Source: a virus (Duplodnaviria > Heunggongvirae > Uroviricota > Caudoviricetes). Taken from it: a stretch of DNA of 64,000 nucleotides. Positions 4,312 to 63,999 of this stretch are shown in pieces (position 1 is the first letter of the stretch; each line of letters opens with the position of its first letter). The notes beneath the pieces are model-generated. The model did no database searches and was not told where the DNA came from. It saw only the letters and a list, made by a program, of their open reading frames with translations. The position numbers were made by a program, and so were the translations under genes. The stretch lies in the IMG/VR virus record IMGVR_UViG_3300045988_157791; one strand, written 5' to 3'.

Positions 4312-4641
4312 TTACTCGAATACTTCAAGAAACTCCTGAACGTCCCAATGCTGGACGAGGTGAAGATAGACCTTAGAAATCACGTCATTTTCGCTATCGC
4401 ATGTGAAGTAGTACTTCTGGCTGCGGTTGTATGTGTCCACACAAAATTCGCTCATATCCATAAAGTCAGCATCTTCACCCATGTCGCAAATCATCAAAGC
4501 AGGTGCGTCATCACGAGTCATCAGCTCAAGCACCCACCGCGAATTGATCAGAGTGGAAGACCAACCTTCTAACTCATAAAACTGATCAAACTCTTTTTGA
4601 GTTAATTTCTTGATTTGGTTGATGTCGATATTTGCAAACAT
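4312..4641 (-). CDS. hypothetical protein (109 aa)
   Basis: ATG start (MFANIDINQ...) directly downstream of motif copy d. Confidence 0.5.
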   Translation of the reverse strand: MFANIDINQIKKLTQKEFDQFYELEGWSSTLINSRWVLELMTRDDAPALMICDMGEDADFMDMSEFCVDTYNRSQKYYFTCDSENDVISKVYLHLVQHWDVQEFLEVFE

Positions 4642-4651
4642 AAAGCAACCC

Positions 4652-4708
4652 TTAAACAACATGTTTTCTTATTGGTGTTATTATCGCAATAACGCATAGG
4701 CGAAAAAG
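4652..4708 (-). promoter_or_regulatory. conserved promoter/leader motif (copy d)
   Basis: AAACAACATGTTTTCTTATTGGTGTTATTATCGC...GGCGAAAAAGG. Confidence 0.55.
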
Positions 4709-4999
4709 GATTTTATTCCGGTGAATGTGGTTTTGGCAGTGAGTTTTCAGGTTCAGTACCGAGTACACTTTTTACATTATTCTGATTTAGTAGCCGAAGG
4801 TGGCTGGTGGGCAGAATAATCATCTCCCCGAAAACCTACTGAAATCGATTGTGACCCGTTGGCTGTCTGGCACAATTACGCTGTAGCTGGGCATTCAGAG
4901 GGAATCCAGCGGTAAGTAAGTTCGCCTGCACGTGAGCGCCTCTCTTCTTCCCGCACATTACAGGTGGGTAGCCGCAACTCTCCCTCTCGCTATACCGGT

Positions 5000-5140
5000 A
5001 CGCCGCCGTTCCTGAACCGGCATCGAGCCTTTTCCCGAAATCCACACAGGCAACTCGACCGTTTCCCTGAAAACCTCCAGCCGTTCCCCGAAGGCAACCC
5101 AGCCGTTTCTGTAGCGGGATGCAGCCTTTTCCCTGTATGG
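5000..5140. repeat. iteron-like array, six GCCGTT(T)CCC-GAA units at about 22-bp spacing
   Basis: Units at about 5004, 5027, 5059, 5080, 5102 and 5124; no credible ORF. Confidence 0.55.
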
Positions 5141-5289
5141 ACCGAAGGCTGACCGTAGGGGTGTTACGGGGGATAAAATCAGGAGTTGAATAAATACGAA
5201 AAAGGAGGCGACACCCCTCCTTCCCTCCCAACTTATACATACCTGTCTTGTTCGCTATACATGTTGTGTTTTCTTCGTGTTTTATCTGT

Positions 5290-6110
5290 TTCAACCTCTC
5301 TATAGGCGTTAATGCTCACTCCTTCCAGAACGTTCTATACGGCGACTATTTCTGTTGGTGAATTGGGTGTGTTGTTTTCCCTGTCGGTGTATGTGGTTTC
5401 GTTCGTTTTGCGATGGTTCTTCTATGGGGTGTTCTCGTCGTTTTGGTGATTGTTCTTCTCCGTGTATGGAGTAATGGCAGGTGGGCGATTCCTTTCGTTA
5501 TTGTGTTTGAGTTGTTTGTCTGGAGTGCGTGAAGGGCTTTTGTAGTTATTCGTGTATTGGGTAATGGCGTTTCCCGTGATTGTTATGTTTCGTGTCTTTT
5601 GGGATTGAGAGAAACCTTGCGGTTACAGGCTTCGTTGGGGTTTCAGTGATTCTGATGTTTCTTCGCTGTTTGGGTAATGGCGTGTCGTGGGTATCGCGCG
5701 TATGAATGTTTTCGGATTGCCTGTGAAAGTTAGGTTGGTTGTCCGGTAGCCTGGGAAGAAGAGGTGGGTCTTTTCGGTAGCCTGCCATAAAGAGGTTGGT
5801 TGTTTTTGGTAATGGCATATGTGTTATTTAGTTGTTTTGTTATACCTGAAAATAAGTTGTTTATATGGTTATGTAACGCAACGGGAGCGATTTTGAGCGT
5901 GTGTTTTTGTTGGTAGTGTGTTGGGTCGTCTGTGGTGAAAATTGGACGCTGTGGCGCTGTCTGCTGCGTAGAGTTACGGGTATAAGAAGTGATGTGTGAA
6001 AACGTCAATTTTTTAGACCAAATCGGGTGAAAGCGTTGACGTTTCGTTGATCTGTTATTTAGTTGTTTTCTTATTTGTATAAACAACCATAACCTATTGA
6101 TATTTAATGA
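5290..6110. repeat. strongly GT-skewed non-coding region with degenerate ~100-bp repeats (GGGTAATGGCG cores)
   Basis: Top strand depleted in A and C; GGGTAATGGCG-like cores near 5476, 5562, 5668 and 5805; track ORFs here are low-complexity. Confidence 0.5.
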
Positions 6111-6205
6111 TGTGATTGCTGGTATGGGAGGGGAGTAGTGGCGATCAACGGATTCTTATAGAAAAGAATCAAATTGTGACCGCCATTATCAATGAGTTGC
6201 AACCG

Positions 6206-6775
6206 TTAGTTGTTCAGATAAACATTTGGAACACGGACGTAGAAGTTCCTGTCGCCGGTAAGTTCCAGAGTAATGTTAATGTCATTACCATTGTCTAGTG
6301 TAGCCGTTGCTCTATAGAACTTATCCGTCACCTTGTCCTCTATTGTCACCTTCATACATTTTGGTGCAGTCGAACCGTTATTCTCTTTCAGAATAGTTGT
6401 CACGAGAGGGCAGGCTGCTTCTTCAAGAGCAACCTCGTCCTTGTGTGGGATGCCGATGAAGATAACCCAAGCCAGCGACGCAACGATTATGATAAATGGC
6501 ACTCTGCTGCCTTTTGTAATAGTCGCGCGCTTCCAGAGATAGACAGGCAGGAGGAATACCCCCCATAGAATTGAAGGTGGTTCACAGCCAGACTCCGATA
6601 GAGCCATTCTGTCAGCTACTAACAAACCGATGGTAGTTACACCCCCAATTATAATAGCGTAATTGGTATACTCTTCCGGCGATACTCCAAAGAAGAAAGG
6701 CATGAACGCTAGAATCCACGCATAAATGTTATTCAGAGGTTTTGTTTGTTGGTTCTGGGTTTCCATCACATCCAT
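6206..6775 (-). CDS. membrane protein, about four predicted N-terminal TM helices (189 aa)
   Basis: Long hydrophobic N-terminal segments followed by a soluble C-terminal domain. Confidence 0.5.
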   Translation of the reverse strand: MDVMETQNQQTKPLNNIYAWILAFMPFFFGVSPEEYTNYAIIIGGVTTIGLLVADRMALSESGCEPPSILWGVFLLPVYLWKRATITKGSRVPFIIIVASLAWVIFIGIPHKDEVALEEAACPLVTTILKENNGSTAPKCMKVTIEDKVTDKFYRATATLDNGNDINITLELTGDRNFYVRVPNVYLNN

Positions 6776-6927
6776 TCCATCACATAAAAATCGCGTTTAT
6801 ATATTATCAATTTTCTCACTTGTATAACCTAAATACGCATCCGTTTATCAATCCACCTTCCACAAACATCAGCTTTAGCTATGAAAAATAACAATCTCAA
6901 AGTGAAAACCATTATCATAGGAAACGA

Positions 6928-7460: not shown

Positions 7461-7525
7461 CAAAACAAGTTGTTTTCTTATGTGGTTTATTATCTCCATC
7501 AACAAAAGGCAGAAAACAAATTGTT
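7461..7525 (-). promoter_or_regulatory. conserved promoter/leader motif (copy e, with a second partial core)
   Basis: AAACAAGTTGTTTTCTTATGTGG plus downstream AAAACAAATTGTTTT. Confidence 0.5.
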
Positions 7526-7565
7526 TTAGGTACTGTGTAAATCAGAAGGGATTGTGTCTATATGA

Positions 7566-15591: not shown

Positions 15592-17277
15592 TCATTTAAC
15601 GCGTTTGAAAACGTATACGCTGACTGTGATCCCTGTGTCTTCAAACTCGTTGGTAAACGACTTCCCTCTGGCATAAACGTAATTATCCATCGTCATCCAG
15701 TCCAGTATTGGCGCAGTGCCCGGCAATACTGCTACAAGACGCCCGCCGACTTTCAGATGCCCCAGCGCAGCCAGCGTGTGCTCTCTATGACGACCAAGCG
15801 AGTACGGCGGGTTCATAACGATTTTGTCGAACTGATAACCTACGTTGTCCTCAGACCACTTTATGAAGTCGCAGCAAATCGTGTTCGTATACCCTTTTCC
15901 GCGCAGGATATCAGCGAAGAGAGGTGCGATTTCTATGCAGGTAACATCTTCCAGATCGGCGTTGATATAGGCCAGAAGATCCCCACGTCCGGCTTGAGGC
16001 TCCAGCAGCTTCTCACCAGACTTCAATTCAGTGGCTCTGGCAACGTACTCAGCAATCAAGCGTGGGGTAGGGTAGAACTGGTGTGATTTTGTATCCGGTA
16101 TTAATCCGGTAGCCACAATCGTATTTAGCGTATGGCCGATCTCATACGGGAACTGCCAGTGCTTTTTCTCCTGCACGCCGCCAATGAAGCTCAGTGTGCG
16201 CTCAAGCTCTTCCACCTGCGACTTCTGGAGAGCTGAATCAGAGAAGTACCATACGCCTTTGTCTTTGCTTAATCGCCCGTCACGAAGCGCAGTGCGAACC
16301 GGCACGGAGATCGTCTTCTGGATTAACCCGAACTGCTTTGGTGCCCGTGTTTTTGGCGCGGTGCGACATGGCGCGGGGATTGCAGCAGGCATACTGTAAG
16401 CCAGCACCTCATTCAACTTCCAGGCCACGTCAGGATGTATTTCAAAGTGAACGTTGCCGTTCTTGAACATCTTCACGCGCATTAGATTTCCATCGACGTT
16501 CATCCAGTCACCGGTCTGGCAGTCGTTTGCCCGATACGCAGCTGATAGCACCTCAGCAGTGCGGTTGATGGTAATAAATTCTTTGTGCGCGAAGAAATGA
16601 AGCAAGACACGCAGATCGTCGATATAGTCCTCTTTGCGATAGTTCACACTAACGCTGTCCCGCCAGAAATCAGAAATGCAGTCAGCGATTATCAGACGTT
16701 CGCTGAAACCGTTTGTCTTATTTGTCTTGTGCGCAGGACTCAGCGCCTTAAACAAGCCATACACGCGCTCAGAGAGATATTTGTGCCTGTCATTCAGCAA
16801 ATTAAGCATCGTGGGTATGACCGTTTCTGCTTTGAACTCCGGTACACCAACGAACTCTTTAACCTTCATCTGGTAGCCGGTTCTGTCAGTTTTGATGACT
16901 TCCTGTTTGCCCTCTATAAACTGCTCGCGCCACTCATCTCGACGGGAAGCTGGCATGATCAGCAAAACGTTAGTCATGTCCGTGACCTTCCTCCAGTACT
17001 CGGCCCAAATATTCTGTTTCACCCATTCCAGATCGACTTTATCCAACCAACCTCGATTTAAACGCGAGCGATCTTCATCTGGTCGATGGTTTAGTCTCAG
17101 CAGGCGATTAATCATGTTGTGGCGTTCGTCGCCATAAACGAAGTCGTGTACCTGATACATGAAGGCGATCTCTTTCTCGCACTCGGCCACAATTTCGTGG
17201 ATGACGTTCATTTCCTGCCGATAGTCGATAGCAGTGTTTGAGTTGGCATCGTCGATGATGGAAAGGGCTGTATTCAT
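15592..17277 (-). CDS. fusion protein: uncharacterised N-terminal domain plus C-terminal N6-adenine DNA methyltransferase (561 aa)
   Basis: C-terminal FYPTP...EPQAGRGDLL (SAM-binding-like) and NPPY catalytic motif; roughly 380-aa N-terminal region without recognisable motifs. Confidence 0.7.
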   Translation of the reverse strand: MNTALSIIDDANSNTAIDYRQEMNVIHEIVAECEKEIAFMYQVHDFVYGDERHNMINRLLRLNHRPDEDRSRLNRGWLDKVDLEWVKQNIWAEYWRKVTDMTNVLLIMPASRRDEWREQFIEGKQEVIKTDRTGYQMKVKEFVGVPEFKAETVIPTMLNLLNDRHKYLSERVYGLFKALSPAHKTNKTNGFSERLIIADCISDFWRDSVSVNYRKEDYIDDLRVLLHFFAHKEFITINRTAEVLSAAYRANDCQTGDWMNVDGNLMRVKMFKNGNVHFEIHPDVAWKLNEVLAYSMPAAIPAPCRTAPKTRAPKQFGLIQKTISVPVRTALRDGRLSKDKGVWYFSDSALQKSQVEELERTLSFIGGVQEKKHWQFPYEIGHTLNTIVATGLIPDTKSHQFYPTPRLIAEYVARATELKSGEKLLEPQAGRGDLLAYINADLEDVTCIEIAPLFADILRGKGYTNTICCDFIKWSEDNVGYQFDKIVMNPPYSLGRHREHTLAALGHLKVGGRLVAVLPGTAPILDWMTMDNYVYARGKSFTNEFEDTGITVSVYVFKRVK

Positions 17278-17380
17278 AATTGCACCATTAAGAAGTGATT
17301 TGTTTAATGGTGCAATTATTTCAAAAATGAAAAGGTACTAAATAGAAATAAACAGGCAATCCTTCAAATAAAGGCATTGG

Positions 17381-18279
17381 CTAATCATACTTGGAGGTAT
17401 TTATCACCAGAATTTTGTTTGTATAAATCTTCTTAATATCCCATGTGACATTACCGGAATACCATTGACCGTTATATACTTGGTTTCCAGTTGCACCTGT
17501 CATTGTTACATAGACAGGTCTGTCGTAATCGGTTCGTCTATAGTTATATACCCCAACCATAGCAGGCATTACCGCACATGGATACCCCATATCTATTGTA
17601 AATTGAGGGTCAGAAATAGTGATAAGTTTCGCATCAAGGGGCATCATCTCACCGTGATACACCATTGCGCCTGCGCTGTTATACATGGCAATGCCATAGC
17701 CAGAATGTGGTAACACCATATCAGAAAAAGCATAAACTGTTATTGTTCCGGGGCTACCATTTACCTGATGCAATCTGAGAGCATTGTATCCGTTACTATG
17801 CTCATGAATAAACATCATGTTCGCCTTATTACTGCTTTTTATGAAGAAAAAGCATGATTTGTTTGATGGGATTGATGTTTGAAAAACAGAACCTTTAGAT
17901 GTAGACATTGTCCCTTTATTAATCAGATTTTGCGGAGTAAATTCTGGACTCATCCACAAACTTCCATCTGATTGAGTAATTGACATCCCGAACATAATTA
18001 TCCCCAGTATGTGTATATGTAAGAACCAAGCCCCGTATATAAATTTGACCAACTAACCGTATTTCCATTAATAGTAACTGTTGGAACAGGTAAATTAATG
18101 TAGTTGTCGTTGTTAAGAGGCATCAATGACCACACGGCATGTAGCGATTTACCCGGTGGCGGATTGGAGTACGTCTTAGAGCCTGATGACGCAGTAAATC
18201 GATCAAGAAAAAAAATAGGAGTAAGGAAGCCAGTAACGTTAATTCCTTTATTGTTGTAAATCCCTGTACCGTATGCCAT
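17381..18279 (-). pseudogene. frameshifted gene for a Tyr/Asn/Gly/Thr-rich protein (two overlapping ORFs of 93 and 223 aa)
   Basis: ORFs 17998-18279 and 17381-18052 overlap in different frames with similar unusual composition; AT-rich. Confidence 0.4.
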
Positions 18280-18334
18280 TTTTCATCCTTGTTTTTTATC
18301 AACACAATATGGCCGATCATGCGGCCATATCAGA

Positions 18335-18904
18335 TCAATTAGAGCTTTGAAAGGCTTTGTGTGGCTGTGTTGCGAGGTTATGTCGATGGCTTAACTCACG
18401 CATCATGTCTTCAAGCCGACTCTTTGTGTCGTCGAGTTGGTCGGCCATTGCTCCCAAAAGCTGACGAACGGCCATCGGATCATCGCTGTTTAGTGATGGC
18501 ATTTTATAACCCGCCTGAGAAGACATAAGATTGAACGCAGACATCAACATCGTTAGAGAGGATTTAAGCCCAGCAATTTCACGATCTTTGCTGGCAATAA
18601 TCGCCTCACTCTTGTTAGTGTCATCAGTTCGTTGAGTCTCGCTCACCATATCCAAAGTCGCCTGCAACTTATCAGCGCGCTCTTTTTCAGCAAGATAATG
18701 AACACCGAAATGATGTGCTAAAGCTACAACCTGAGTTGGCTCTTCAAAGGTGGACTCAAAATTAAGTGCTGTAACCACTCTCTCAAATATGGAAACGTCT
18801 TCTATTCCTCGAAGAATGGCTAACATTTTGACCAGTTCATTAGCATCCATTTCTTCGAATAAGGCGTTTTGTTCATCAGCTATCGCTTTGCATTTCTTGC
18901 ACAT
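18335..18904 (-). CDS. hypothetical protein (189 aa)
   Basis: ORF with conserved initiation context; motif copy f upstream. Confidence 0.5.
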   Translation of the reverse strand: MCKKCKAIADEQNALFEEMDANELVKMLAILRGIEDVSIFERVVTALNFESTFEEPTQVVALAHHFGVHYLAEKERADKLQATLDMVSETQRTDDTNKSEAIIASKDREIAGLKSSLTMLMSAFNLMSSQAGYKMPSLNSDDPMAVRQLLGAMADQLDDTKSRLEDMMRELSHRHNLATQPHKAFQSSN

Positions 18905-22161: not shown

Positions 22162-22755
22162 CTAAGCAGCCTTCTTTGATGGTCTTTTTTTCCTGATCAC
22201 ATTCGCAGGATCATACCCTCCCAGACTTTTCATGACGTCCAAAGGGATCTTGCTTATAGAGTGCCCAGCGTCCTGACAGAATCCTCGAAAAACAACGAGC
22301 ATACTGCCACCTGGGTTGATGTTTACTTCTACCTGACCCAGATTGACGTCAGGCTCGACAAACGCTACGCGGCCACCAGACAGAATAATCGTCTCATTCG
22401 CACACTCTGTTGCACGCTCATACCACTTTGTATCTAGGGATTGAGGAATTAGCATCACTGTTGTAACTCCGCGAGCCTGCTCACGTATAGCCGCATCAAT
22501 CCAGGGGGAGATTTTGGAGTAGGGTGGATTGAGGAAGGCAATTGTACCTGGCTGTCCCCATTCAGATTTCAAAGCATCACGCTCAACGCCTATGAAATTA
22601 GGCAGCTTTGCATTGTCCTTGTTGCAGGCAACGTCAACATCAAATGTCACTCCAAGATAACGTTGAATGGCAGAAAACAGCCAGTCAGGTGTTCTCCAGA
22701 GGTCACGAAGAGAGTTGTCGCGCTTTCGCTGTTTGATTTTTTCGGCTGCAATCAT
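22162..22755 (-). CDS. phage-type DNA N6-adenine methyltransferase (Dam-like, 197 aa)
   Basis: NPPY catalytic motif (IAFLNPPYSK) in a small phage Dam-family architecture. Confidence 0.7.
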   Translation of the reverse strand: MIAAEKIKQRKRDNSLRDLWRTPDWLFSAIQRYLGVTFDVDVACNKDNAKLPNFIGVERDALKSEWGQPGTIAFLNPPYSKISPWIDAAIREQARGVTTVMLIPQSLDTKWYERATECANETIILSGGRVAFVEPDVNLGQVEVNINPGGSMLVVFRGFCQDAGHSISKIPLDVMKSLGGYDPANVIRKKRPSKKAA

Positions 22756-22831
22756 CTTCTTTCTCGATAGGTAAGTAAATACCTATTTTTGCATTTGATT
22801 TTATGTCTGGCAATCAAATAAAACGCGCCAG

Positions 22832-22900
22832 AAATGCAAACGAGAAGCTCTCTGGCGCGTTTTTGTGGTGCTGGGTATGTGATTGGCTTACCCAGCACTA
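22832..22900 (-). terminator. tandem hairpins, the distal one a rho-independent terminator
   Basis: CGCGCCAGAG...TCTGGCGCG followed by a U-run on the minus strand; second hairpin GTGCTGGGTA...TACCCAGCAC. Confidence 0.6.
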
Positions 22901-22938
22901 TAAAGCTCTCTATGGGCTTTATTTTCAGTAGGGGAACG

Positions 22939-23748
22939 TCATCCAATAGTGTACTCCGCGACAAACTTCTTAACGATCGGTGATTCTTCGTTCAATGTTA
23001 GATTTCCACCGCCTCTAACGGCAATTCCTGTCGCTGGAAATACAGCCATCATTTGCCCAGCCTGAGTTGACGCAGTGTTAAGCGGATACGGTTTTTCTGG
23101 ATTGCTCATTAAAGCAATCTTAATACTATTACTTGTAGCCTTCTTTTCTGTGAGAAGGTGTCTCATGGAAATTACCGTGTAAACACTAATATCTGGACCT
23201 CCGCTAAACCAATTAAGAAGGTTTAATATCTTATCCTTTGCTTTGACAGGCGCGTTATCGTAAGCGTCTAAGAAAATATCTTTTTCTAAGCCCGCTTTAT
23301 TGAAAAACGAATCATCTTTATCACTTAAAGTAAAACGAGGACCTCTTGCAGTACGAGCTTTTTTATTTGTATTGCTATCATTTGACTGTTGAACTTTTAA
23401 TTCATCATTAACCTCAACACACTCTTCAACCTCAATAAATCCCAATTGTTCTGGCTCGTTTTCGGCAGCTTCAACACTTTCAGCGTTAATTACGTTTATA
23501 GGCTCATGCGCTAACTCCAACTCATTTAAAGCAGAGCTGAAATCACCTGCTTTTTCTTCATTGAACAGTTCTTCGGCAACATCATCAGAACTCATGGCTA
23601 CGCCAGCATCTAGGCCGAGCAGCAGATCGTCAATATCATCAGTATTTTCAACCTGTGCAGCTTTTTTTACTGGTTCATCAAGTGATTGCAACATGGCTGT
23701 CAGCTCGTCCAGATCATCATTTGTCATTACATTTTCAACCGAACTCAT
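22939..23748 (-). CDS. acidic hypothetical protein (269 aa)
   Basis: ORF; Asp/Glu-rich N-terminal half. Confidence 0.5.
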   Translation of the reverse strand: MSSVENVMTNDDLDELTAMLQSLDEPVKKAAQVENTDDIDDLLLGLDAGVAMSSDDVAEELFNEEKAGDFSSALNELELAHEPINVINAESVEAAENEPEQLGFIEVEECVEVNDELKVQQSNDSNTNKKARTARGPRFTLSDKDDSFFNKAGLEKDIFLDAYDNAPVKAKDKILNLLNWFSGGPDISVYTVISMRHLLTEKKATSNSIKIALMSNPEKPYPLNTASTQAGQMMAVFPATGIAVRGGGNLTLNEESPIVKKFVAEYTIG

Positions 23749-23906
23749 GTAAGTCTCCTTCTGTTTGGTTACATTTGCGTTTCGATGGCTACATTTTGAC
23801 TAAACCTATCAGGCGGAAAAGTATTAAATACAGGCAGGAAATGATTGAAAGGCGACTGTTCTTTAAAAGAAAGCCTACTTTAAACTTTTTAAAGTAGGCT
23901 TTTGTT

Positions 23907-24464
23907 TTACACAATTTCAGAGGGTAATTTAAAAAATCCGTACTTATTACGTGCCTTAAAGAAGCATTGCATCATTAAGTTTGTGTCATATAAGGCACTA
24001 TGTGCTTTGGCATGATCGTATATAAAGCCAAGAGAGAAGGCCAACTCTTCAAGGCGGGGACGTTTACCGTCTTCTGTGGCCCACAATCCCGATAACATAG
24101 TATCTATAACAGGAACTTCTGGCAGTCTTACTCCATACCCTGAAAACTCGTGTCGAATAAATGGTATATCAAATGCTTCGCCGTTATGAGCAACCCACAC
24201 ACTACATGCCCCCATATAAGCGCCAATTTCGCTGGCATGATTTGACAACAAAGGTTCAGCTGCGAGCTGTTCCAATGAAATGCCATGAACGGCTTGAGCT
24301 TTCGGATCTATGTTTCTGCGAGGGTTAAAACGCATCTCCAGACTATCAATATGTCTCTGTGTCTCCAGTTCATAGCGGGTAATTGCGATTTCAATAATTT
24401 TATGACCAGCAAGGAAATCCAGTCCCGTAGACTCGATATCGATGCCTGCAACAATCGTTGTCAT
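23907..24464 (-). CDS. DnaQ-like 3'-5' exonuclease (DEDDh)
   Basis: Exo motifs DIESTG, HNGEAFD, HSALYD. Confidence 0.7.
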   Translation of the reverse strand: MTTIVAGIDIESTGLDFLAGHKIIEIAITRYELETQRHIDSLEMRFNPRRNIDPKAQAVHGISLEQLAAEPLLSNHASEIGAYMGACSVWVAHNGEAFDIPFIRHEFSGYGVRLPEVPVIDTMLSGLWATEDGKRPRLEELAFSLGFIYDHAKAHSALYDTNLMMQCFFKARNKYGFFKLPSEIV

Positions 24465-56392: not shown

Positions 56393-56779
56393 ATGTCTGA
56401 TAACAAGATTGAATTTATAGAAAGTCGCTACGCTGCTTTTATCGCAGGGTTGATTGAATCCTCACCTATGAGCCAGGCCCAGATAGCCAAAACAATTGGG
56501 TATAAAAACGCCAACAACCTTTCTTTAATTAAAAGCGGCAAAATTCCTTTGCCTATCGATAAGGTTCGTCCGCTGGCGCTGGCACTGGGCATTGAGCCAA
56601 GTCGTCTTATGATGATGGTGCTGGAAGAACGCCAACCCGAACTCGCAGCATTTTTATACAAAGAAGGCACTGCTCCTCTTAACGAGGACGAAAAACAGGT
56701 TCTTGCTGCATATAACGAGCGATTCGGTAAAGAGAAAGGCGCATCACAAAAGGTTGTTGAGGCCATAAAGTCTCTATGA
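56393..56779 (+). CDS. XRE-family helix-turn-helix regulator
   Basis: HTH-like segment MSQAQIAKTIGYKNANNLSLIKSG. Confidence 0.55.
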   Translation: MSDNKIEFIESRYAAFIAGLIESSPMSQAQIAKTIGYKNANNLSLIKSGKIPLPIDKVRPLALALGIEPSRLMMMVLEERQPELAAFLYKEGTAPLNEDEKQVLAAYNERFGKEKGASQKVVEAIKSL

Positions 56780-57877
56780 AAAATTTACACGAATAAGCTC
56801 TGTTGATAGACGATCTCCCTTAAATTTGTGGTCAATTTCGTCTAAATCCGGTTGCTCTACGATTGATGCGATGTACGTCGAGAAACTTTCTAAGGCGTCT
56901 CGCATCTCGTCCATATAATCGTGCCGGTCGTAGACCCGATCTATCCCCTCAAGACTGTGGTTCATGATTTTACGTGATACCTCCTGGCTTATGCCTAATG
57001 CTGGGAAGTAACTACGCGCAGTACGGCGCAAATCTCGGGGTGTAAATGGCTCAAGCTCCATCAGTTCTGGTCGTTCCAGAATACGACGTAATGCCTGGGC
57101 TATTGCCACTTTAGACATAGGAAGGTCTTTCCCGATTTTTTTATTCGAAGGCACGAGCCACTGGCTGTCTTTACCATATTCGAACAACTCTTCAATACAA
57201 GTGCGCATTAATGAGCTTAAAGGCAGAGAATGCTCACGGGCAGATTTGTTCCTCTTGCCTTGATTCCAAACCCCACGCTTAAGATTGAACTCACTTTTTT
57301 TAGCCCGCAGTACTTCGTCAGGTCGTCTTGCGGATACAAGACATAGCCTGGCCGCCCATTTTGTACCAGCGCACACATTGAAGTAGTCCCATATATTCCA
57401 GAACACCCATACCTCTGCGTCGGTCAGCTTCCGCTCGCGAGGTGTGGGCTTTGCGCCACCGGCAACTTTGTTAAGTGACATATCGTTTAACGGTGACACG
57501 TCTATCATCCCCTGGAAGGCGCACCAGCTAAGGAACTGCTTCATCAGAGAGAAAACGCGGCGGCCCATAACAATTTTGCCATCCAGTATTAGTGGGTTGA
57601 CCAGTTGGTTCACCATGAACCTATTAATGTCACTTACTTTTACATCGGCAATGTGCGGCAAAACATGTATCAAAATACAATGAACAGCGATCTCTGGCCG
57701 ACGTCTGGTTATCAGCAGAGATAAGCGAGTGAATAACATGAATGCGTCCGAGAATCTCATGTCATTGCTGACCTGGGAGATCATAACGGCCTGCATTTGA
57801 GATGCTCTTTCGAGATACTCTATCGCCTCTTTTGAGGTGTTCTCCGCAGCGCGTGCTCTGTCAAAGCTATTTTTCAT
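56774..57877 (-). CDS. tyrosine recombinase / integrase
   Basis: C-terminal catalytic pattern TPRDLRRTA ... HSLEGIDRVYDRHDY (R, H-x-x-R, Y). Confidence 0.75.
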   Translation of the reverse strand: MKNSFDRARAAENTSKEAIEYLERASQMQAVMISQVSNDMRFSDAFMLFTRLSLLITRRRPEIAVHCILIHVLPHIADVKVSDINRFMVNQLVNPLILDGKIVMGRRVFSLMKQFLSWCAFQGMIDVSPLNDMSLNKVAGGAKPTPRERKLTDAEVWVFWNIWDYFNVCAGTKWAARLCLVSARRPDEVLRAKKSEFNLKRGVWNQGKRNKSAREHSLPLSSLMRTCIEELFEYGKDSQWLVPSNKKIGKDLPMSKVAIAQALRRILERPELMELEPFTPRDLRRTARSYFPALGISQEVSRKIMNHSLEGIDRVYDRHDYMDEMRDALESFSTYIASIVEQPDLDEIDHKFKGDRLSTELIRVNFS

Positions 57878-58050
57878 ATGACAATCACCGAGTTACGCCG
57901 ATGCACTGTATAAGTAAACAGTATATTAGGCATAGATTCTTATAGGATCAAGAGTAAAAGTAACTCATTTTCAGCAATGATTCCATACATAGTAGGTATG
58001 GAATCATTTAAGGGAGGAATTTAAATTCTGAGGCGTTATTAATATGATTG

Positions 58051-58461
58051 TTAAGGGTTAGTGAGAGCTTGAAATGCGGCCGCGTAGGTAGCGATATCGA
58101 CCATAATTTTTGGATCTTTCGCGTGCTGATGTGCGTTGTTAGGGAAGATTGCCAATAGGCTATACACATCTTGGAAATGTGCATGTTGACTGTAAACGAG
58201 TGCACGGTCGCTTGTGCAATTGAATCTGCTGCGGCTGCTGGTTCGTTCTTGCTTCGTGAACAAGAGATGAACGTGATAGACGCGGGAGGACACGATAGCA
58301 CCAGGAGCCGTATACGGGCCATCTTTGCCGAATATGGCTGGGTACATGCCTTGTTTAAACGACTTGAAATCGTTGAGTAACGTAATCTCTAAGTCAGGCT
58401 TTATATCGAAGGTCGGCTTTAAAAATTGGGCGTAACTATCACTGTTCCATGTGATCTTCAT
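58051..58461 (-). CDS. YafO-family toxin-like protein
   Basis: Aligns with E. coli YafO as I recall it (DF.S.K, FG.D, H.HL, LVY, LLAI..P..H, AEAF spacing). Confidence 0.55.
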   Translation of the reverse strand: MKITWNSDSYAQFLKPTFDIKPDLEITLLNDFKSFKQGMYPAIFGKDGPYTAPGAIVSSRVYHVHLLFTKQERTSSRSRFNCTSDRALVYSQHAHFQDVYSLLAIFPNNAHQHAKDPKIMVDIATYAAAFQALTNP

Positions 58462-58470
58462 CGTTCAACC

Positions 58471-59079
58471 TCAATGGAATGAGAAGTTGGCGAAGACGTC
58501 CTCATCAATGAGGCCAGTCTGCGATTCGATGACGTCTACGTCGTTAAAACACTGATTTAAAATCAATAGCAGATCAGAGATAGCTAAACGATACTCAGTT
58601 ACAGAATCGCTCAAGCGTTTCAAATATGGATGAGGTTGCTCAGAGTCGCGAATCAACTTGTTAACGAATCCCTCCAAACCACGAATGGTCAGGTCAACGT
58701 TCTTCAGTTCTTCGTAACGACTTTCACCGAAGTTGCTGCGAATCTTTTCCGCTTTCCATCCAGAGATGGCATGGGCTAAGCGAACGTGTTTCGCCGTCAA
58801 TTCTGCGAGCTTGCTTTCAATCTTTGCCAGCTGTGCCGCATCGCGGTTTTCTTGAACAGGAATAGCCGCAGTGCTCACATAGGTTTGTGTTTTGAATCCT
58901 GTGAATTTCGCAGAGGGCTTCATCGTGCCACGGAAGCGTCGATATCCACGCGGTTCAATAAAATCACGCCCAGATTTAGCTGTAGGCTTTGCGTTTGAAA
59001 AGCGTGAAGCGTTAGAGGTCACAGTAGCAAGGGCATTGCTAATGACACTCATATCTTCTAGGCAATTTTCTAAACGCAT
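58471..59079 (-). CDS. hypothetical protein, candidate non-canonical partner of the YafO-like toxin (202 aa)
   Basis: Ends 10 nt before the YafO-like start; no YefM/Phd-like features. Confidence 0.45.
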   Translation of the reverse strand: MRLENCLEDMSVISNALATVTSNASRFSNAKPTAKSGRDFIEPRGYRRFRGTMKPSAKFTGFKTQTYVSTAAIPVQENRDAAQLAKIESKLAELTAKHVRLAHAISGWKAEKIRSNFGESRYEELKNVDLTIRGLEGFVNKLIRDSEQPHPYLKRLSDSVTEYRLAISDLLLILNQCFNDVDVIESQTGLIDEDVFANFSFH

Positions 59080-59174
59080 AAAACCTCTTAACTACTCAAT
59101 GGCTCGTAACTAAGTGTACGCTGTGCTGATGAAAGCTACAAATAATAAATGGCCCCAAAAGGAGCCGTATTGTA

Positions 59175-59420
59175 TTACAGAGTGCTCGCAAAAGCAGCAA
59201 ATTCTGTGTATCCGCCAATCGGCTGGCCATCGATCAGCACTTGGGGGATAGTCTCTACCGGTTTACCAACAATTTCACTAAGTTTTTCCTTGTCGATACC
59301 GGCAGTGGTGATGTCGATGTACTCATAATCACTGTAGCCATGTCCCTTTAGTTGCTTCGCCAGCTCGACCGCACGTTTGCAGTATGAGCAGTTATCTCGT
59401 CCGTAGATAGTGATCGTCAT
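59175..59420 (-). CDS. glutaredoxin-like protein
   Basis: Thioredoxin-fold redox motif CSYC near the N-terminus, 81 aa. Confidence 0.7.
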   Translation of the reverse strand: MTITIYGRDNCSYCKRAVELAKQLKGHGYSDYEYIDITTAGIDKEKLSEIVGKPVETIPQVLIDGQPIGGYTEFAAFASTL

Positions 59421-59593
59421 AACTTAACAAATACCTTTATAAATATTGATTCGAACATATCAGACTATACTACAAACAGATTTTTTTGATAAGTATGTAG
59501 TAACTTATTGGTTAACTAGTAAACAATTGAAGTGATTACGACAATAGATTACAGTAAGGATTGCCTTGAAATGTACATTTTATAGAGGTTTTA

Positions 59594-60502
59594 ATGATTG
59601 GTAAGTTGTCTGATTCTTTGATTGAAAATAAATACAACGAATTTAGAGAAGAAATATCTTTACTTTTTGACTATTTAAATCAGATAAATGATACAACAAA
59701 GAAAAATATAAAACGTCTTCTTAAAGAAGTGGAGTATGCACAGAATCCAGATACTATTATTAATATTAATGAAACTATTAAGATTAAGTGTGGCACAACA
59801 TTAGCTCGCCATTTATGTTCAAACCCATATACAGGTTCAACATTAGAGATAGGTAACAGCGCCATTGATTTAGAAGAAAAGATAAGATTGTGTAATACTT
59901 TGAAAAATAAACAATATCAGTGGGTTATTACTGAAGCCTATGAGTTACTGGAAGACTATATTGAGGCAATATATGTCTATACTGTATGTGTTCGAAATGA
60001 TTTATGGTCCTCAAGTGATTTTGGTAAGGTTGAAGATGATGAAATTGGGAAAAGGGAAGTTTATTACAGATTATTAAAAGCAAAAAGTAACCCATCGAAA
60101 AAAATAACTAAAATTTTCAGAAATAAAATACCTGGCTTCAAAGAGATAGAAACAAACAACAAGATTGGCAAAAACTATCGCTTTAACATCAAGCTAATTG
60201 AACTACTAAGACATACAATAGTACATAATGGTGGACGATTCAACAACACAGAAAAATTTATAACTAAGGTCTTGGATGAATCTGAAATAAGCGGAAAAAA
60301 AAGAGTTATTGGAGAAAGAGTTGTTAGAAACTACATTGCTAAAGTACAAGAAGATGATATTGTAATGCTATTAGAAAGACCATCAGAAATTTTAGGTTCT
60401 TTTGGTTGGCATTTCAATAGAGCAAAATATTTACTAAGTGATATTTTAGAATACTCACTAATCATTAAAGAAGAACTAATATCATATCTAGATAATTATT
60501 AA
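59594..60502 (+). CDS. AT-rich hypothetical protein with an R-x4-H (HEPN-like) motif; possible abortive-infection protein
   Basis: About 30% GC gene in a 48-50% GC backbone; motif ELLRHTIVHNGG. Confidence 0.4.
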   Translation: MIGKLSDSLIENKYNEFREEISLLFDYLNQINDTTKKNIKRLLKEVEYAQNPDTIININETIKIKCGTTLARHLCSNPYTGSTLEIGNSAIDLEEKIRLCNTLKNKQYQWVITEAYELLEDYIEAIYVYTVCVRNDLWSSSDFGKVEDDEIGKREVYYRLLKAKSNPSKKITKIFRNKIPGFKEIETNNKIGKNYRFNIKLIELLRHTIVHNGGRFNNTEKFITKVLDESEISGKKRVIGERVVRNYIAKVQEDDIVMLLERPSEILGSFGWHFNRAKYLLSDILEYSLIIKEELISYLDNY

Positions 60503-60921
60503 TTAAAAGGGCAGAAGCTCCTTTGGTTATTGCGTTGGAAACTATATCATTACAATAATAAACGATGTTTTCAACGCATAAAACATCAGTGAATAAATTG
60601 ATGCTTGCTGTAACGATGGTACGCTACGTAATATCCGAGATTTATGAGGCTGATTACAGATAAGGACTTACATAGCACACAAAAACGTTGCGACTTATAA
60701 GAATATCTGCTGATATCAGACGCAACGTATGTTTTATATCAAATTATTACTTTATAGTAATAAACAATATTAAGTTGAAAAGCCATCATCAGCGGCAACC
60801 TTATTATGAACTTCAGCTAAATACTCAGCTGCCGCTATTTGTTGCTCTGCAAAAGAAGCGCCATGAGCTTCCATTGAACCAGCATAAAGCATTAGAGAAT
60901 GATGTAAATCTTTATTAAGCA

Positions 60922-61611
60922 TTATACGAGATAACACAATACTGGCACACCATTGCGTTCGGCTAATTTATTAACGCTGTAAAGAAACTCAACGACTTTG
61001 TCCTTATTCCCTGCCCACGATGGCAGCCGACCATTTCCAGAGGCGACATCCTTCGCTGAATGAATCTTATTCGCATGATGCATTCTGGTTTTAGCCTTAA
61101 TGTATCCCTGAAAGAACAGAAAGGCGATATACGCAATAATTGATATGCCTTTTGTTGGCCACGCAAAAAACAAAGCAGGAAAAAAGAGAAGAGTAGTTAT
61201 CATACCAATTTTTAGTGAAAGTTGAGCAATAATAAAAAGTATAAGCGCAATCCCGAGAGTCCACATAGTGAAAGGTACACCTTCAGTCTCTCCATTCAAG
61301 ATATACACACTATCGTCCATAGCTGCAAGGTGAACATATAAGAACACAACAGGGGTGATAAATGTTCGCACCTCTTTAAATCGTGTAATCATCTTGGCAA
61401 TCCAGTAAGCTAAAAGAACACTGGCAAATGACTCTGCAAGGATTTCGGCAACTATCGTGGATGTAACTTCAATAAAAATAAACGACAAGAGAAGATACAG
61501 GGTAATACAGTATCCAAAGTATATTGATTTATTGAATAGAATTTTCTTCACAAAAATTCCTGGTGAAAGAATCATTAATCGAAAATTATATAACAATCTA
61601 ATAACCTCCAA
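60922..61611 (-). CDS. multi-pass membrane protein (AT-rich)
   Basis: Several hydrophobic helices; low GC. Confidence 0.5.
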   Translation of the reverse strand: MEVIRLLYNFRLMILSPGIFVKKILFNKSIYFGYCITLYLLLSFIFIEVTSTIVAEILAESFASVLLAYWIAKMITRFKEVRTFITPVVFLYVHLAAMDDSVYILNGETEGVPFTMWTLGIALILFIIAQLSLKIGMITTLLFFPALFFAWPTKGISIIAYIAFLFFQGYIKAKTRMHHANKIHSAKDVASGNGRLPSWAGNKDKVVEFLYSVNKLAERNGVPVLCYLV

Positions 61612-61833
61612 ATTGTATCAACACAGTACGCTTCACCTCGCTGCTAGGCTGCAACTAGGAATAATCTCATTGTAAATCAAATGTAAAAATCCTTAAAGAT
61701 TCTTTTTAATTTGATTAAAATATGTCCTTGATAAACGGAAATTTCCTATACCTAAATGGAACACACTATATGCACGGATTAGTAATTGTAAGAAAATAAA
61801 CAATAATCAATGATGTTTTCATAAGGAAAGAAT

Positions 61834-62733
61834 ATGAACAAGGCCAGAAACCACCATTACCTTTCTCAATGCTATTTAAGAGGATTTACGAAAAATGGAG
61901 GGGTTAAATCAAATATAATAGCTTTTGATTTGAAGAAAAAAACAACTTTTGAGGCAAAGCCTCGAAATGTTGGCGGTATAAGAGATTTTAACAGAATAGA
62001 TATTGAGGGAGTCGATCAAAATATCCTTGAAAGTACATTGGCAAATTTCGAGGGTAATGTTGCAACTGAACTTAAAAACTTAAAACAGGGTATGCCTTTC
62101 TCTGGTCAAACTAAGGATATAATCCTTTCTTTCATTTCGTTACTGGCCGTCAGAACACCAGCTATGCGTGATCACATGGAATCACAAATAGTTAAAATGG
62201 TAGATATGGTCGCGAAAATGACAGCTTCAGATGAAGACAGATACAACGATACTATTCGAGAAGCTGCTTTTACTGTTGATGTATCATTTGAAAAGATAAA
62301 AAACTTTATTGGAGGCAGTCAATACTCTATTTCTGTCAAGCGTGAGTTTCTTATCGCTGCTGAAATGAAAATATCTCGAGCCATTGACAATGCACTTCAT
62401 TGTCGCGACTGGCGTCTCTTCCGTTCTACAGAAGAATCAGGAACTTTCATAACTTCAGATAATCCAGTAGGTCTGATGTGGACAGATGAAAGTGACGGAT
62501 CACCTGGTTTTTTGGTTGAAAATACATGTGTTCTTTTCCCTATATCCAAAGATATTATTTTGTTTGGAGACTACGGTGGTAGAACTGGTGAACATTATGC
62601 GAACAAAAATATAGCTTCACATTTTAATGCATGTGTCATTTCTAATGCAGTAGAAAGAGTATTTTCTGCAGATCGAACATTTAATTACATTAACGTAGAT
62701 GGTGTAATTAAGCAGGGAAATAACCTCGTGTAA
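61834..62733 (+). CDS. DUF4238-like protein (candidate single-gene antiphage protein)
   Basis: N-terminal HHYLSQCYLRGF resembles the HHY..Q.YL+.F signature I recall for DUF4238; low GC. Confidence 0.5.
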   Translation: MNKARNHHYLSQCYLRGFTKNGGVKSNIIAFDLKKKTTFEAKPRNVGGIRDFNRIDIEGVDQNILESTLANFEGNVATELKNLKQGMPFSGQTKDIILSFISLLAVRTPAMRDHMESQIVKMVDMVAKMTASDEDRYNDTIREAAFTVDVSFEKIKNFIGGSQYSISVKREFLIAAEMKISRAIDNALHCRDWRLFRSTEESGTFITSDNPVGLMWTDESDGSPGFLVENTCVLFPISKDIILFGDYGGRTGEHYANKNIASHFNACVISNAVERVFSADRTFNYINVDGVIKQGNNLV

Positions 62734-62764
62734 AAGTTTGATAGGGGCATATACGCCCCTATCA

Positions 62765-63319
62765 TTATTTTATTTTATCTTCTTCTAAACGAGAAAATTT
62801 AAATTGTTTATCGGTGATGGTGAGTAGTGTTACACCTTCCTTTTCGTGTAAAAAACCGGCACCGTTTGACACCATAATCAATCTATCCTTCCCTCGAAAG
62901 ATTTCATAATATTTACCACCTCCACAAGTTTTAGTTTCAATACAGTCCATGCCAGATACTGCTTCTCTGTTAAAAATACGATCTTTTGTAGCAACGGGTT
63001 TTCCGTACTCCTTTGTCAGCATTTCACTTATCTGGATGAATGTATACTTACCAACATTACTGGTTAATGACATTTCGACTTTTCCGTCGATCAGATTGCC
63101 ATTCGTATGCGGTTCTTTTTCAGTCGGGGTATTTTTATCTTGAAGAACAAACACTTCAACATTTTGTGTTAGCTTCTTGAATTGGGCTTTATAATTTTGT
63201 TCAAGTTCACTTTTATCTTTGCCTATTAACGTTAATTCATCTATTTCAGATTCGTTACACCCTGTTAGCGTTAACGCAATTATTAGAGATGCGAAAATAT
63301 TGAGATGGCACTTCTTCAT
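62765..63319 (-). CDS. lipoprotein (AT-rich, 184 aa)
   Basis: Signal peptide with lipobox LTGC. Confidence 0.5.
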   Translation of the reverse strand: MKKCHLNIFASLIIALTLTGCNESEIDELTLIGKDKSELEQNYKAQFKKLTQNVEVFVLQDKNTPTEKEPHTNGNLIDGKVEMSLTSNVGKYTFIQISEMLTKEYGKPVATKDRIFNREAVSGMDCIETKTCGGGKYYEIFRGKDRLIMVSNGAGFLHEKEGVTLLTITDKQFKFSRLEEDKIK

Positions 63320-63437
63320 TAATTTGTCTCCATGTTTAACTGCTGCGATCTAATCAGGAACATGAAGGCAGTCTAACGCTGCCTCTGATCAAAGCGATAA
63401 AACGATACGTGAATATAACTAAGTGTCAACAAAACAA

Positions 63438-63462
63438 AAAAGGGGCCGAAGCCCCTTTGAAT
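63438..63462. terminator. bidirectional hairpin terminator
   Basis: AGGGGCcgaaGCCCCT flanked by A-run and T-run. Confidence 0.6.
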
Positions 63463-63532
63463 TTTGCGCTGAAAAAAGTGTTGCTAGGATGTTAGCAAGC
63501 TATGGTTAAGAACGTCTGCCGTAATTGTCTAT

Positions 63533-63610
63533 CACAGCGTTGAGCGGTCTGGTTTATGTTAGCGGAGTCTTAATCTGGTTGATTAAAAGGCCAAACCGCT
63601 CAACGCTGTG
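63533..63610. other. perfect 16-bp inverted repeat enclosing a 46-nt loop, abutting the 3' end of tRNA-Ser
   Basis: CACAGCGTTGAGCGGT ... ACCGCTCAACGCTGTG. Confidence 0.5.
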
Positions 63611-63612
63611 TC

Positions 63613-63699
63613 TGGCGGAGAGTAATGGAATCGAACCATCATCGCTTGCGCAATGGGACGGTTTTCAAGACCGCTTGAGCACCATGCTCCCTACTCTCC
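63613..63699 (-). tRNA. tRNA-Ser (anticodon UGA), class II with long variable arm
   Basis: Folded by hand: 7-bp acceptor GGAGAGT/ACTCTCC, anticodon loop CUUGAAA, variable arm CATTGC-GCAA-GCGATG, T-loop GGTTCGATTCC, 3' GCCA; D-arm atypical. Confidence 0.6.
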
Positions 63700-63923
63700 G
63701 GCCGTTGTGGTGGCCGGTACTGAATCTCCGGCATACGGTGCAGCCAATTAGGACTACGGACGATCACCGCTCGCGAAAGGGAAGATTTGCGGCCGCATTT
63801 CCCTAACATCCAAGAAAGCTATCGCATCAGTCTGCGAATCCACCACAACGGTAAGATCACTACCTTTCGACCAGTCATTGTGCACATGAACGACGATTAA
63901 CCGTAATGATCTTATCGTTGTAT

Positions 63924-63999
63924 TGGTGCCGGTTAGCGGACTCGAACCGCTGACATCCTGCTTACAAGGCAGGCGCTCTACCAACTGAGCTAAACCGGC
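63924..63999 (-). tRNA. tRNA-Thr (anticodon UGU)
   Basis: Folded by hand: acceptor GCCGGTT/AACCGGC, D-arm GCTCAGTTGGTAGAGC, anticodon loop CUUGUAA, T-arm AGCGGTTCGAGTCCGCT, discriminator A plus CCA. Confidence 0.7.

Follow-up and report, generated by a model that had tools for sequence, protein, structure and literature searches.

The AT-rich segment at positions 59,594–63,319 of a 64,000-nucleotide Caudoviricetes sequence (IMG/VR record IMGVR_UViG_3300045988_157791; the whole stretch is called the window here) is probably the present cargo of a recombination hotspot that extends from a glutaredoxin gene, grxA, to a phage tRNA cluster, and a mosaic of independent defence and accessory modules. 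An earlier note on this sequence had put forward four genes on alternating strands, here called A to D, as a candidate for an uncharacterised defence system beside an integrase and tRNA genes. The four open reading frames (ORFs) lie where that note had placed them, and a fifth, B2, had been missed. Comparison with relatives divides the segment into modules of different standing: judged from sequence, the type of hotspot and the system to which gene C belongs are known, and gene A, a HEPN-like candidate, is uncatalogued.

Variable cargo between grxA and the tRNA cluster

We classify the host element as an SSU5/pHCM2-type phage-plasmid. Near the island it carries CobT/CobS-like genes, a DNA ligase and a phage tRNA cluster, and its flanks are 98–99% identical to ~110-kb non-mobilizable IncFIB E. 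coli plasmids, to 'Escherichia phage CMS-2020a' and to phage Cyrano. Coverage of the 8-kb region stays below 80% for every record in the collections of phages, plasmids and complete E. coli genomes. The island (59421–63432) has a guanine-cytosine (GC) content of 33.8%, with 28.9% in A, 38.2% in B, 36.3% in C and 35.0% in D, and the window outside it averages 46.0% (standard deviation 2.9%, 900-bp windows), which places the island 3–6 standard deviations below the backbone. The low-GC island of the earlier note is therefore real, although its figure of 48–50% for the backbone was slightly too high.

Among about ten elements examined, the flanks of this slot are conserved and its contents take at least eight different forms; as the earlier suggestion of variable cargo had it, the segment is absent or different in every relative. 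Plasmid pRM9975-1 holds A only, p20170902CC-1 an unrelated 431-amino-acid (aa) protein together with D, and pYLMB30c AbiGi (PADLOC, 6.8e-47) with a 403-aa partner. A Gp49-family gene is the sole content in pU_B2_3 and in phage Cyrano. In pERB3f3 the slot is occupied by a protein whose N-terminal domain is a defence-type endonuclease (PDC-M68A, 5.7e-25; SduA-like, 1e-16) and by a D-like lipoprotein, and in an SSU5-like Logan contig (SRR28095489, positions 4366–6801; L006) by a different lipoprotein (185 aa), a DUF4238 protein that shares 70% identity with C, and a protein of 241 aa. Klebsiella and Citrobacter relatives carry A alleles of 38–42% identity at unchanged position and orientation. 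Known defence genes among these contents are thus AbiGi, the endonuclease effector and DUF4238, alongside an RTasHEPN-like match at 1.4e-3.

The insertions and deletions that separate these elements are nested. B2, B, C and D (about 2.9 kb) are missing together from pRM9975-1, and B2, B and C (about 2.0 kb) are missing from p20170902CC-1, which retains D and a 170-bp spacer (60514–60685). Because of this nesting, A, B2-B-C and D have separate histories, and the slot in the window would hold at least three independent modules: A, the B2-B pair with C, and D. The four genes do not hold together as one system, since A occurs alone in many plasmids, D is found with other partners and B, B2 and C form a separate nested insertion.

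In having conserved flanks that bracket highly variable, AT-rich content with known defence genes, the slot resembles the P2/P4 defence hotspots. It differs from them in location, since in SSU5/pHCM2-like elements it runs from grxA to the tRNA cluster, and in including non-defence cargo. In Citrobacter plasmid pRHBSTW-00127_3 (6218–9891) the slot contains, besides an A-family allele and a TolA-like fragment, the complete arsRDAB operon for arsenic resistance; defence genes are thus not its only cargo. Phage-plasmids tend to carry defence cargo (Pfeifer & Rocha 2024), a tendency that the slot fits; our literature search found no published description of the grxA–tRNA slot itself. The net effect of such cargo would be that the lysogen, and hence the plasmid-prophage, is protected from rival phages. 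SSU5/pHCM2-like phage-plasmids are common among E. coli, Klebsiella and Salmonella of clinical origin, and a slot that shuffles DUF4238, AbiGi, nuclease effectors and the A family would affect the outcome of phage therapy and competition between phages. The grxA-to-tRNA interval is also a simple place to mine for new defence genes.

Table 1. Features of the slot and its flanks in the window
Feature	Coordinates	Strand	Description
Tyrosine recombinase (integrase)	56774–57877		Confirmed
YafO toxin	58051–58461		Confirmed
grxA glutaredoxin	59175–59420	-	Pfam Glutaredoxin, 3.2e-11; conserved backbone gene, left edge of variable slot
Gene A	59594–60502	+	302-aa HEPN-like protein, R206-H207-x3-H211; stand-alone candidate abortive-infection ribonuclease
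Module-boundary sequence after A	60499–60534		Similar to 63433–63468
Non-coding spacer	60514–60685		Roughly 170 bp; 82.6% shared with p20170902CC-1, there 3' of a different cargo gene
B2	60770–60922	-	50-aa acidic fifth ORF; overlaps B stop codon at TAATG (60924–60920)
Gene B	60922–61575	-	Multi-pass membrane protein, near-orphan
Divergent intergenic region B/C	61576–61833		258 bp, AT-rich, 28.7% GC
Promoter-like site in B/C intergenic region	61792–61765	-	
Gene C	61834–62733	+	299 aa; DUF4238 single-gene anti-phage protein type (Rst_DUF4238 / PADLOC DUF4238)
Bidirectional hairpin terminator	62739–62764		Common to convergent C and D
Gene D	62765–63319	-	184-aa lipoprotein, lipobox LTGC; beside tRNA cluster, semi-conserved there in part of the relatives
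Promoter-like site upstream of D	63402–63429	-	TTGACA-16-TATCGT; consensus match only
tRNA operon terminator	63439–63458	-	Right-hand module boundary of cargo
tRNA-Ser (UGA)	63613–63699	-	ARAGORN and Rfam; opens the phage-plasmid's own tRNA cluster; backbone gene on the right flank
tRNA-Thr	63924–63999		Confirmed

Gene A, a HEPN-like candidate

The R-x4-H motif that the earlier note had pointed out in the 302-aa protein is present as R206-HTIV-H211, with a polar residue (H207) directly after the arginine. In an alignment of 73 family members, most of them only 18–35% identical to A, the sole invariant residues are E117, R206, H207 and H211. A word-indexed search had recovered just seven relatives; an exhaustive search with a profile hidden Markov model built from the alignment of those seven found 414 representative clusters (at the 50% identity level), 297 of them at E ≤ 1e-10 and mostly 290–310 aa long, ranging from Enterobacteria to Campylobacterota, Treponema and Aminicenantes. 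The family is absent from Pfam, PADLOC 2.0 and PHROG annotation: A itself has no match in Pfam, PADLOC or NCBIfam, and PHROGs assigns it to unknown function.

The HEPN-like label given to A earlier stands for the motif and, tentatively and with moderate support, for the fold, but not at the level of profiles. The 73 members match no Pfam HEPN family and yield one weak Csx1/Csm6 match only (0.0033); with curated HEPN profiles giving no match to A, sequence does not establish that it belongs to the superfamily. Searches of A against PDB sequences, by phmmer and with the family profile, gave nothing meaningful, and the best matches, CmlS and SNAP-25, were dismissed as spurious. A first AlphaFold2 model, built from a 6-sequence alignment, was too poor (predicted local distance difference test, pLDDT, 58) and was replaced by one built from the 73 sequences. 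Foldseek searches for A against PDB and BFVD returned no significant match. Set beside known HEPN ribonucleases (HepT/DUF86, AbiD/F, AbiJ, AbiU2, AbiV and ApeA-type Abi proteins), A matches no Pfam or PADLOC HEPN model and has an additional invariant glutamate, E117. It also differs from the HepT/DUF86 toxins of MNT-HEPN modules in size, about 300 aa against about 130, having a long helix at the N-terminus, a beta-hairpin and an extension at the C-terminus, and in that no MNT antitoxin lies adjacent.

The genomic context of A homologues supports a defence role. Within 4 kb of the homologue in 23 unrelated genomes, the neighbouring genes include PD-T7-1, PD-T7-5, AriA-like, type IIG and type I restriction-modification, GajB, Avs4 and AbiEii genes, together with resolvases and phage genes. 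A type IIG enzyme (6e-189) overlaps one A homologue by 4 nt, and other neighbours in the scan are an HmaA-like helicase (2e-160) and LmuB-like and mad3-like ATPases. None of the neighbouring families occurs in more than three loci. The contigs of one distant homologue, P0007, end at the gene, which makes its neighbourhood uninformative. Among 72,556 PLSDB plasmid records, 58 carry an A-family gene; all are non-mobilizable, their alleles are very divergent, and the enterobacterial carriers listed are of phage-plasmid size (~108–119 kb).

Motif conservation is read directly from the alignment; ribonuclease activity, its triggering and any phenotype we infer. A would act alone as a HEPN-like abortive-infection ribonuclease: after a competing phage has been sensed, R206 and H211 would together cleave RNA. 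Tentatively, the family as a whole may constitute a widespread new single-gene abortive-infection defence, made up of stand-alone ~300-aa HEPN-type ribonucleases of which phage-plasmids carry rapidly diversifying alleles that exclude rival phages. If A does serve in defence, it would add a system that annotation pipelines currently do not see; its four invariant residues make it a concrete and cheaply testable candidate.

A different role for A is conceivable and seems unlikely. It could serve the life cycle of the phage-plasmid or counter-defence, for instance in RNA processing or host takeover tied to the tRNA cluster, or else be a helical protein with a fortuitous R-x4-H. A life-cycle factor would sit poorly with the distribution of the gene, since just the 58 PLSDB plasmids carry it against 1,312 records that match some part of the 8-kb backbone query (an upper bound, in which tRNA-only matches are counted), and phage Cyrano is functional without A, which makes A dispensable. 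The retention of R, H, H and E among members that are mostly 18–35% identical to A argues for catalysis, and on chromosomes the homologues sit in the setting of defence islands and mobile elements, with no relation to tRNA clusters.

The 241-aa protein in the slot of the L006 contig contains 'IRNIMAHNDG' and has a weak RTasHEPN match (1.4e-3). Its R-N-x3-H-N-D-G resembles the R-H-x3-H-N-G-G of A. An hhalign comparison with the A family aligned the motif alone, at 9% probability, and homology between the two was not shown. The analogous trio of this contig, drawn from different families, could be a coincidence or a recurrent combination.

Gene C and the B/B2 operon

By its profile matches, C is a divergent member of a known, validated system type, which bears out the earlier assignments of a DUF4238-like protein and of defence cargo and leaves no room for calling this gene uncharacterised. 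It matches Pfam PF14022 (DUF4238) over residues 6–281 (profile 1–280 of 281; 2e-40, score 139.4 against a cut-off of 27) and the PADLOC model PDLC03000 DUF4238-Pers end to end (residues 1–299 on 1–309 of 309; 3.4e-95). C retains every one of the 32 residues that are invariant in an alignment of 36 sequences, including R5, H7, H8, Q12, R50-D51-F52-N53-R54, E177, R191 and P211. Over its full length C is 47% identical to the DUF4238 protein of the P2-like phage pro483, the E. coli type, whose gene lies between replication gene A and the portal gene, a position that we take to be the P2 hotspot studied by Rousset et al. The copies in pro483 and in the window are alike in that each occupies a variable slot of a temperate phage element. 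C thus shares with the Rst_DUF4238/PADLOC DUF4238 system of the P2-like hotspot (Rousset et al. 2022) the full-length model match and the invariant residues; it differs as a divergent subtype, carried on a phage-plasmid rather than a P2 prophage and beside an orphan membrane-protein operon.

The exact allele is rare: among 5.8 billion proteins there are one identical cluster and one cluster of 70% identity, and no DNA match to it was found in PLSDB, in INPHARED or among 5,426 complete E. coli genomes. The DUF4238 passages of Rousset 2022 (PMC9122126) report strong T7 resistance from a single DUF4238 protein of the P2-like hotspot and give its molecular function as unknown, and our literature search found no later mechanistic paper on the family. 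By analogy with this homologue, C would act alone against T7-like phages. The allele provides a second, divergent case in which to study how DUF4238 proteins function.

B is the multi-pass membrane protein of the earlier note, with several hydrophobic segments. Started at TTG it spans 60922–61611 on the minus strand (229 aa); the ATG at 61575, chosen by gene callers on other contigs, gives 217 aa, and an alternative TTG at 61596 lies 8 nt after a GGAGG. Among the 5.8 billion proteins it has two relatives only: one cluster is identical, and the other is a frameshifted version of B in another copy of this island. Blastn in distant mode matched nothing in plasmids, and megablast found only a 125-bp spacer match in the complete E. 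coli genomes. The overlap of B2 with the B stop codon predicts that the two are translationally coupled. B2 was called as a gene on two independent contigs (L008 and L009), and family searches found no match and no homologue outside the island. The frameshifted copy comes from a metagenomic version of the island (L007, positions 338–949; 96.5% identical), in which B is frameshifted after about residue 162 and B2 is 100% identical; either an assembly error or decay of B would explain it. B and B2 are an orphan membrane-protein operon and most likely a passenger of the nested 2-kb insertion that they form with C.

That B2, B and C, or even all five genes, make up one multi-gene defence system, with DUF4238 as sensor or effector, B as membrane effector and B2 as small regulator, is improbable. 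Such a system would fit the single indel that the three genes form relative to p20170902CC-1, their adjacency on every contig with an identical B and the divergence of B and C from one AT-rich intergenic region; membrane effectors, moreover, are common in abortive-infection systems. The contigs with B, however, are near-identical copies of one island (L007 among them) and so are not independent samples, and the exact C allele, never seen apart from B/B2, sits on such copies. The DUF4238 homologues of L006 (70%) and pro483 (47%) have unrelated neighbours and lack B and B2. A DUF4238 protein protects as a single gene according to the same passages (PMC9122126), B is frameshifted in L007, and A and D are distributed separately.

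Boundaries, exchange and neighbouring genes

The recombinase, YafO and tRNA genes reported earlier as neighbours of the segment were confirmed, but the island does not adjoin the YafO module: grxA intervenes and forms the island's true left boundary. In local BLAST, homology with pYLMB30c and pU_B2_3 stops at 59420, and homology with pRM9975-1, pYLMB30c and pU_B2_3 restarts at 63433–63438. Positions 7502–7537 of pRM9975-1 align to both 60499–60534 and 63433–63468 of the window, the similar sequences at which its B2-B-C-D gap has its junction; 60499–60534 is thus a probable site of cassette exchange. The AT-rich cassettes would be exchanged through the conserved flanks and these shared terminator-like boundary sequences, homologous recombination being the more likely mechanism, and not through the neighbouring integrase.

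A classical genomic island, mobilised by the integrase and inserted at a tRNA gene, is what a tyrosine recombinase 1.7 kb to the left and tRNA genes immediately to the right would suggest, and we rejected it as highly improbable. The integrase is a backbone gene whose DNA is 98–99.9% conserved in relatives that have different cargo or none, and it is separated from the cargo by grxA and the YafO module. A search for direct repeats of the tRNA 3' end (tRNA-derived att repeats) at the island ends found none. The island is bounded by grxA on one side and, on the other, by a terminator that lies about 155 bp past the tRNA, and the tRNAs are genes of the phage-plasmid's own cluster (annotated as tRNA-Ser/Thr/Asn in phage Cyrano) rather than a host integration target. 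Since the integrase belongs to the backbone of all these relatives and tRNA-derived repeats are absent, the apparent classic island position is coincidental.

D is a lipoprotein, as had been noted: its lipobox, L-T-G-C at residues 18–21, is read from the translation as MKKCHLNIFASLIIALTLTG followed by C and fits [LVI][ASTVI][GAS]C. It matches phrog_15156 (5.7e-108), is 98.6% identical in p20170902CC-1 and ~77–80% in many plasmids; tblastn against 50,697 phage records found no match, and Pfam, PADLOC and NCBIfam searches detected no similarity to a named family. T5 Llp and phi80/N15 Cor are phage lipoproteins that mediate superinfection exclusion. D is like them in being a small lipoprotein of a phage element with a canonical lipobox and its own promoter-like site, and unlike them in having no detectable sequence similarity to named families. 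By this analogy D is possibly an envelope or superinfection-exclusion factor.

A search of Rfam for non-coding RNA within the island found none, and the spacer at 60514–60685 has no Rfam match. Directly 3' of tRNA-Ser and before the operon terminator lies a near-perfect inverted repeat (63533–63610), whose 20-nt arms are 95% complementary and enclose a 38-nt spacer. In the window tRNA-Ser and tRNA-Thr are 224 bp apart (63700–63923), against 8 bp in phage Cyrano; neither ARAGORN nor Rfam detects a gene in this gap, which a degraded tRNA or a further small insertion could explain.

A second variable slot (58011–59174) lies between the integrase and grxA. It holds YafO and, at 58471–59079, a 202-aa partner ORF upstream of YafO (phrog_13546, without a Pfam match). 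The pair is kept in some relatives and absent from p20170902CC-1 and pERB3f3; a 184-aa hypothetical protein replaces it in phage Cyrano and pSLy3, and a Klebsiella relative has a colicin-E1-type immunity gene added in this slot. Elsewhere in the window, two milder low-GC spots (about 37%) may be further accessory or anti-restriction cargo: 15592–18904 encodes a DUF4942 protein (561 aa) and three unannotated ORFs, and 22162–24464 a Dam methyltransferase, a 269-aa protein of unknown function and an RNase T-family exonuclease.

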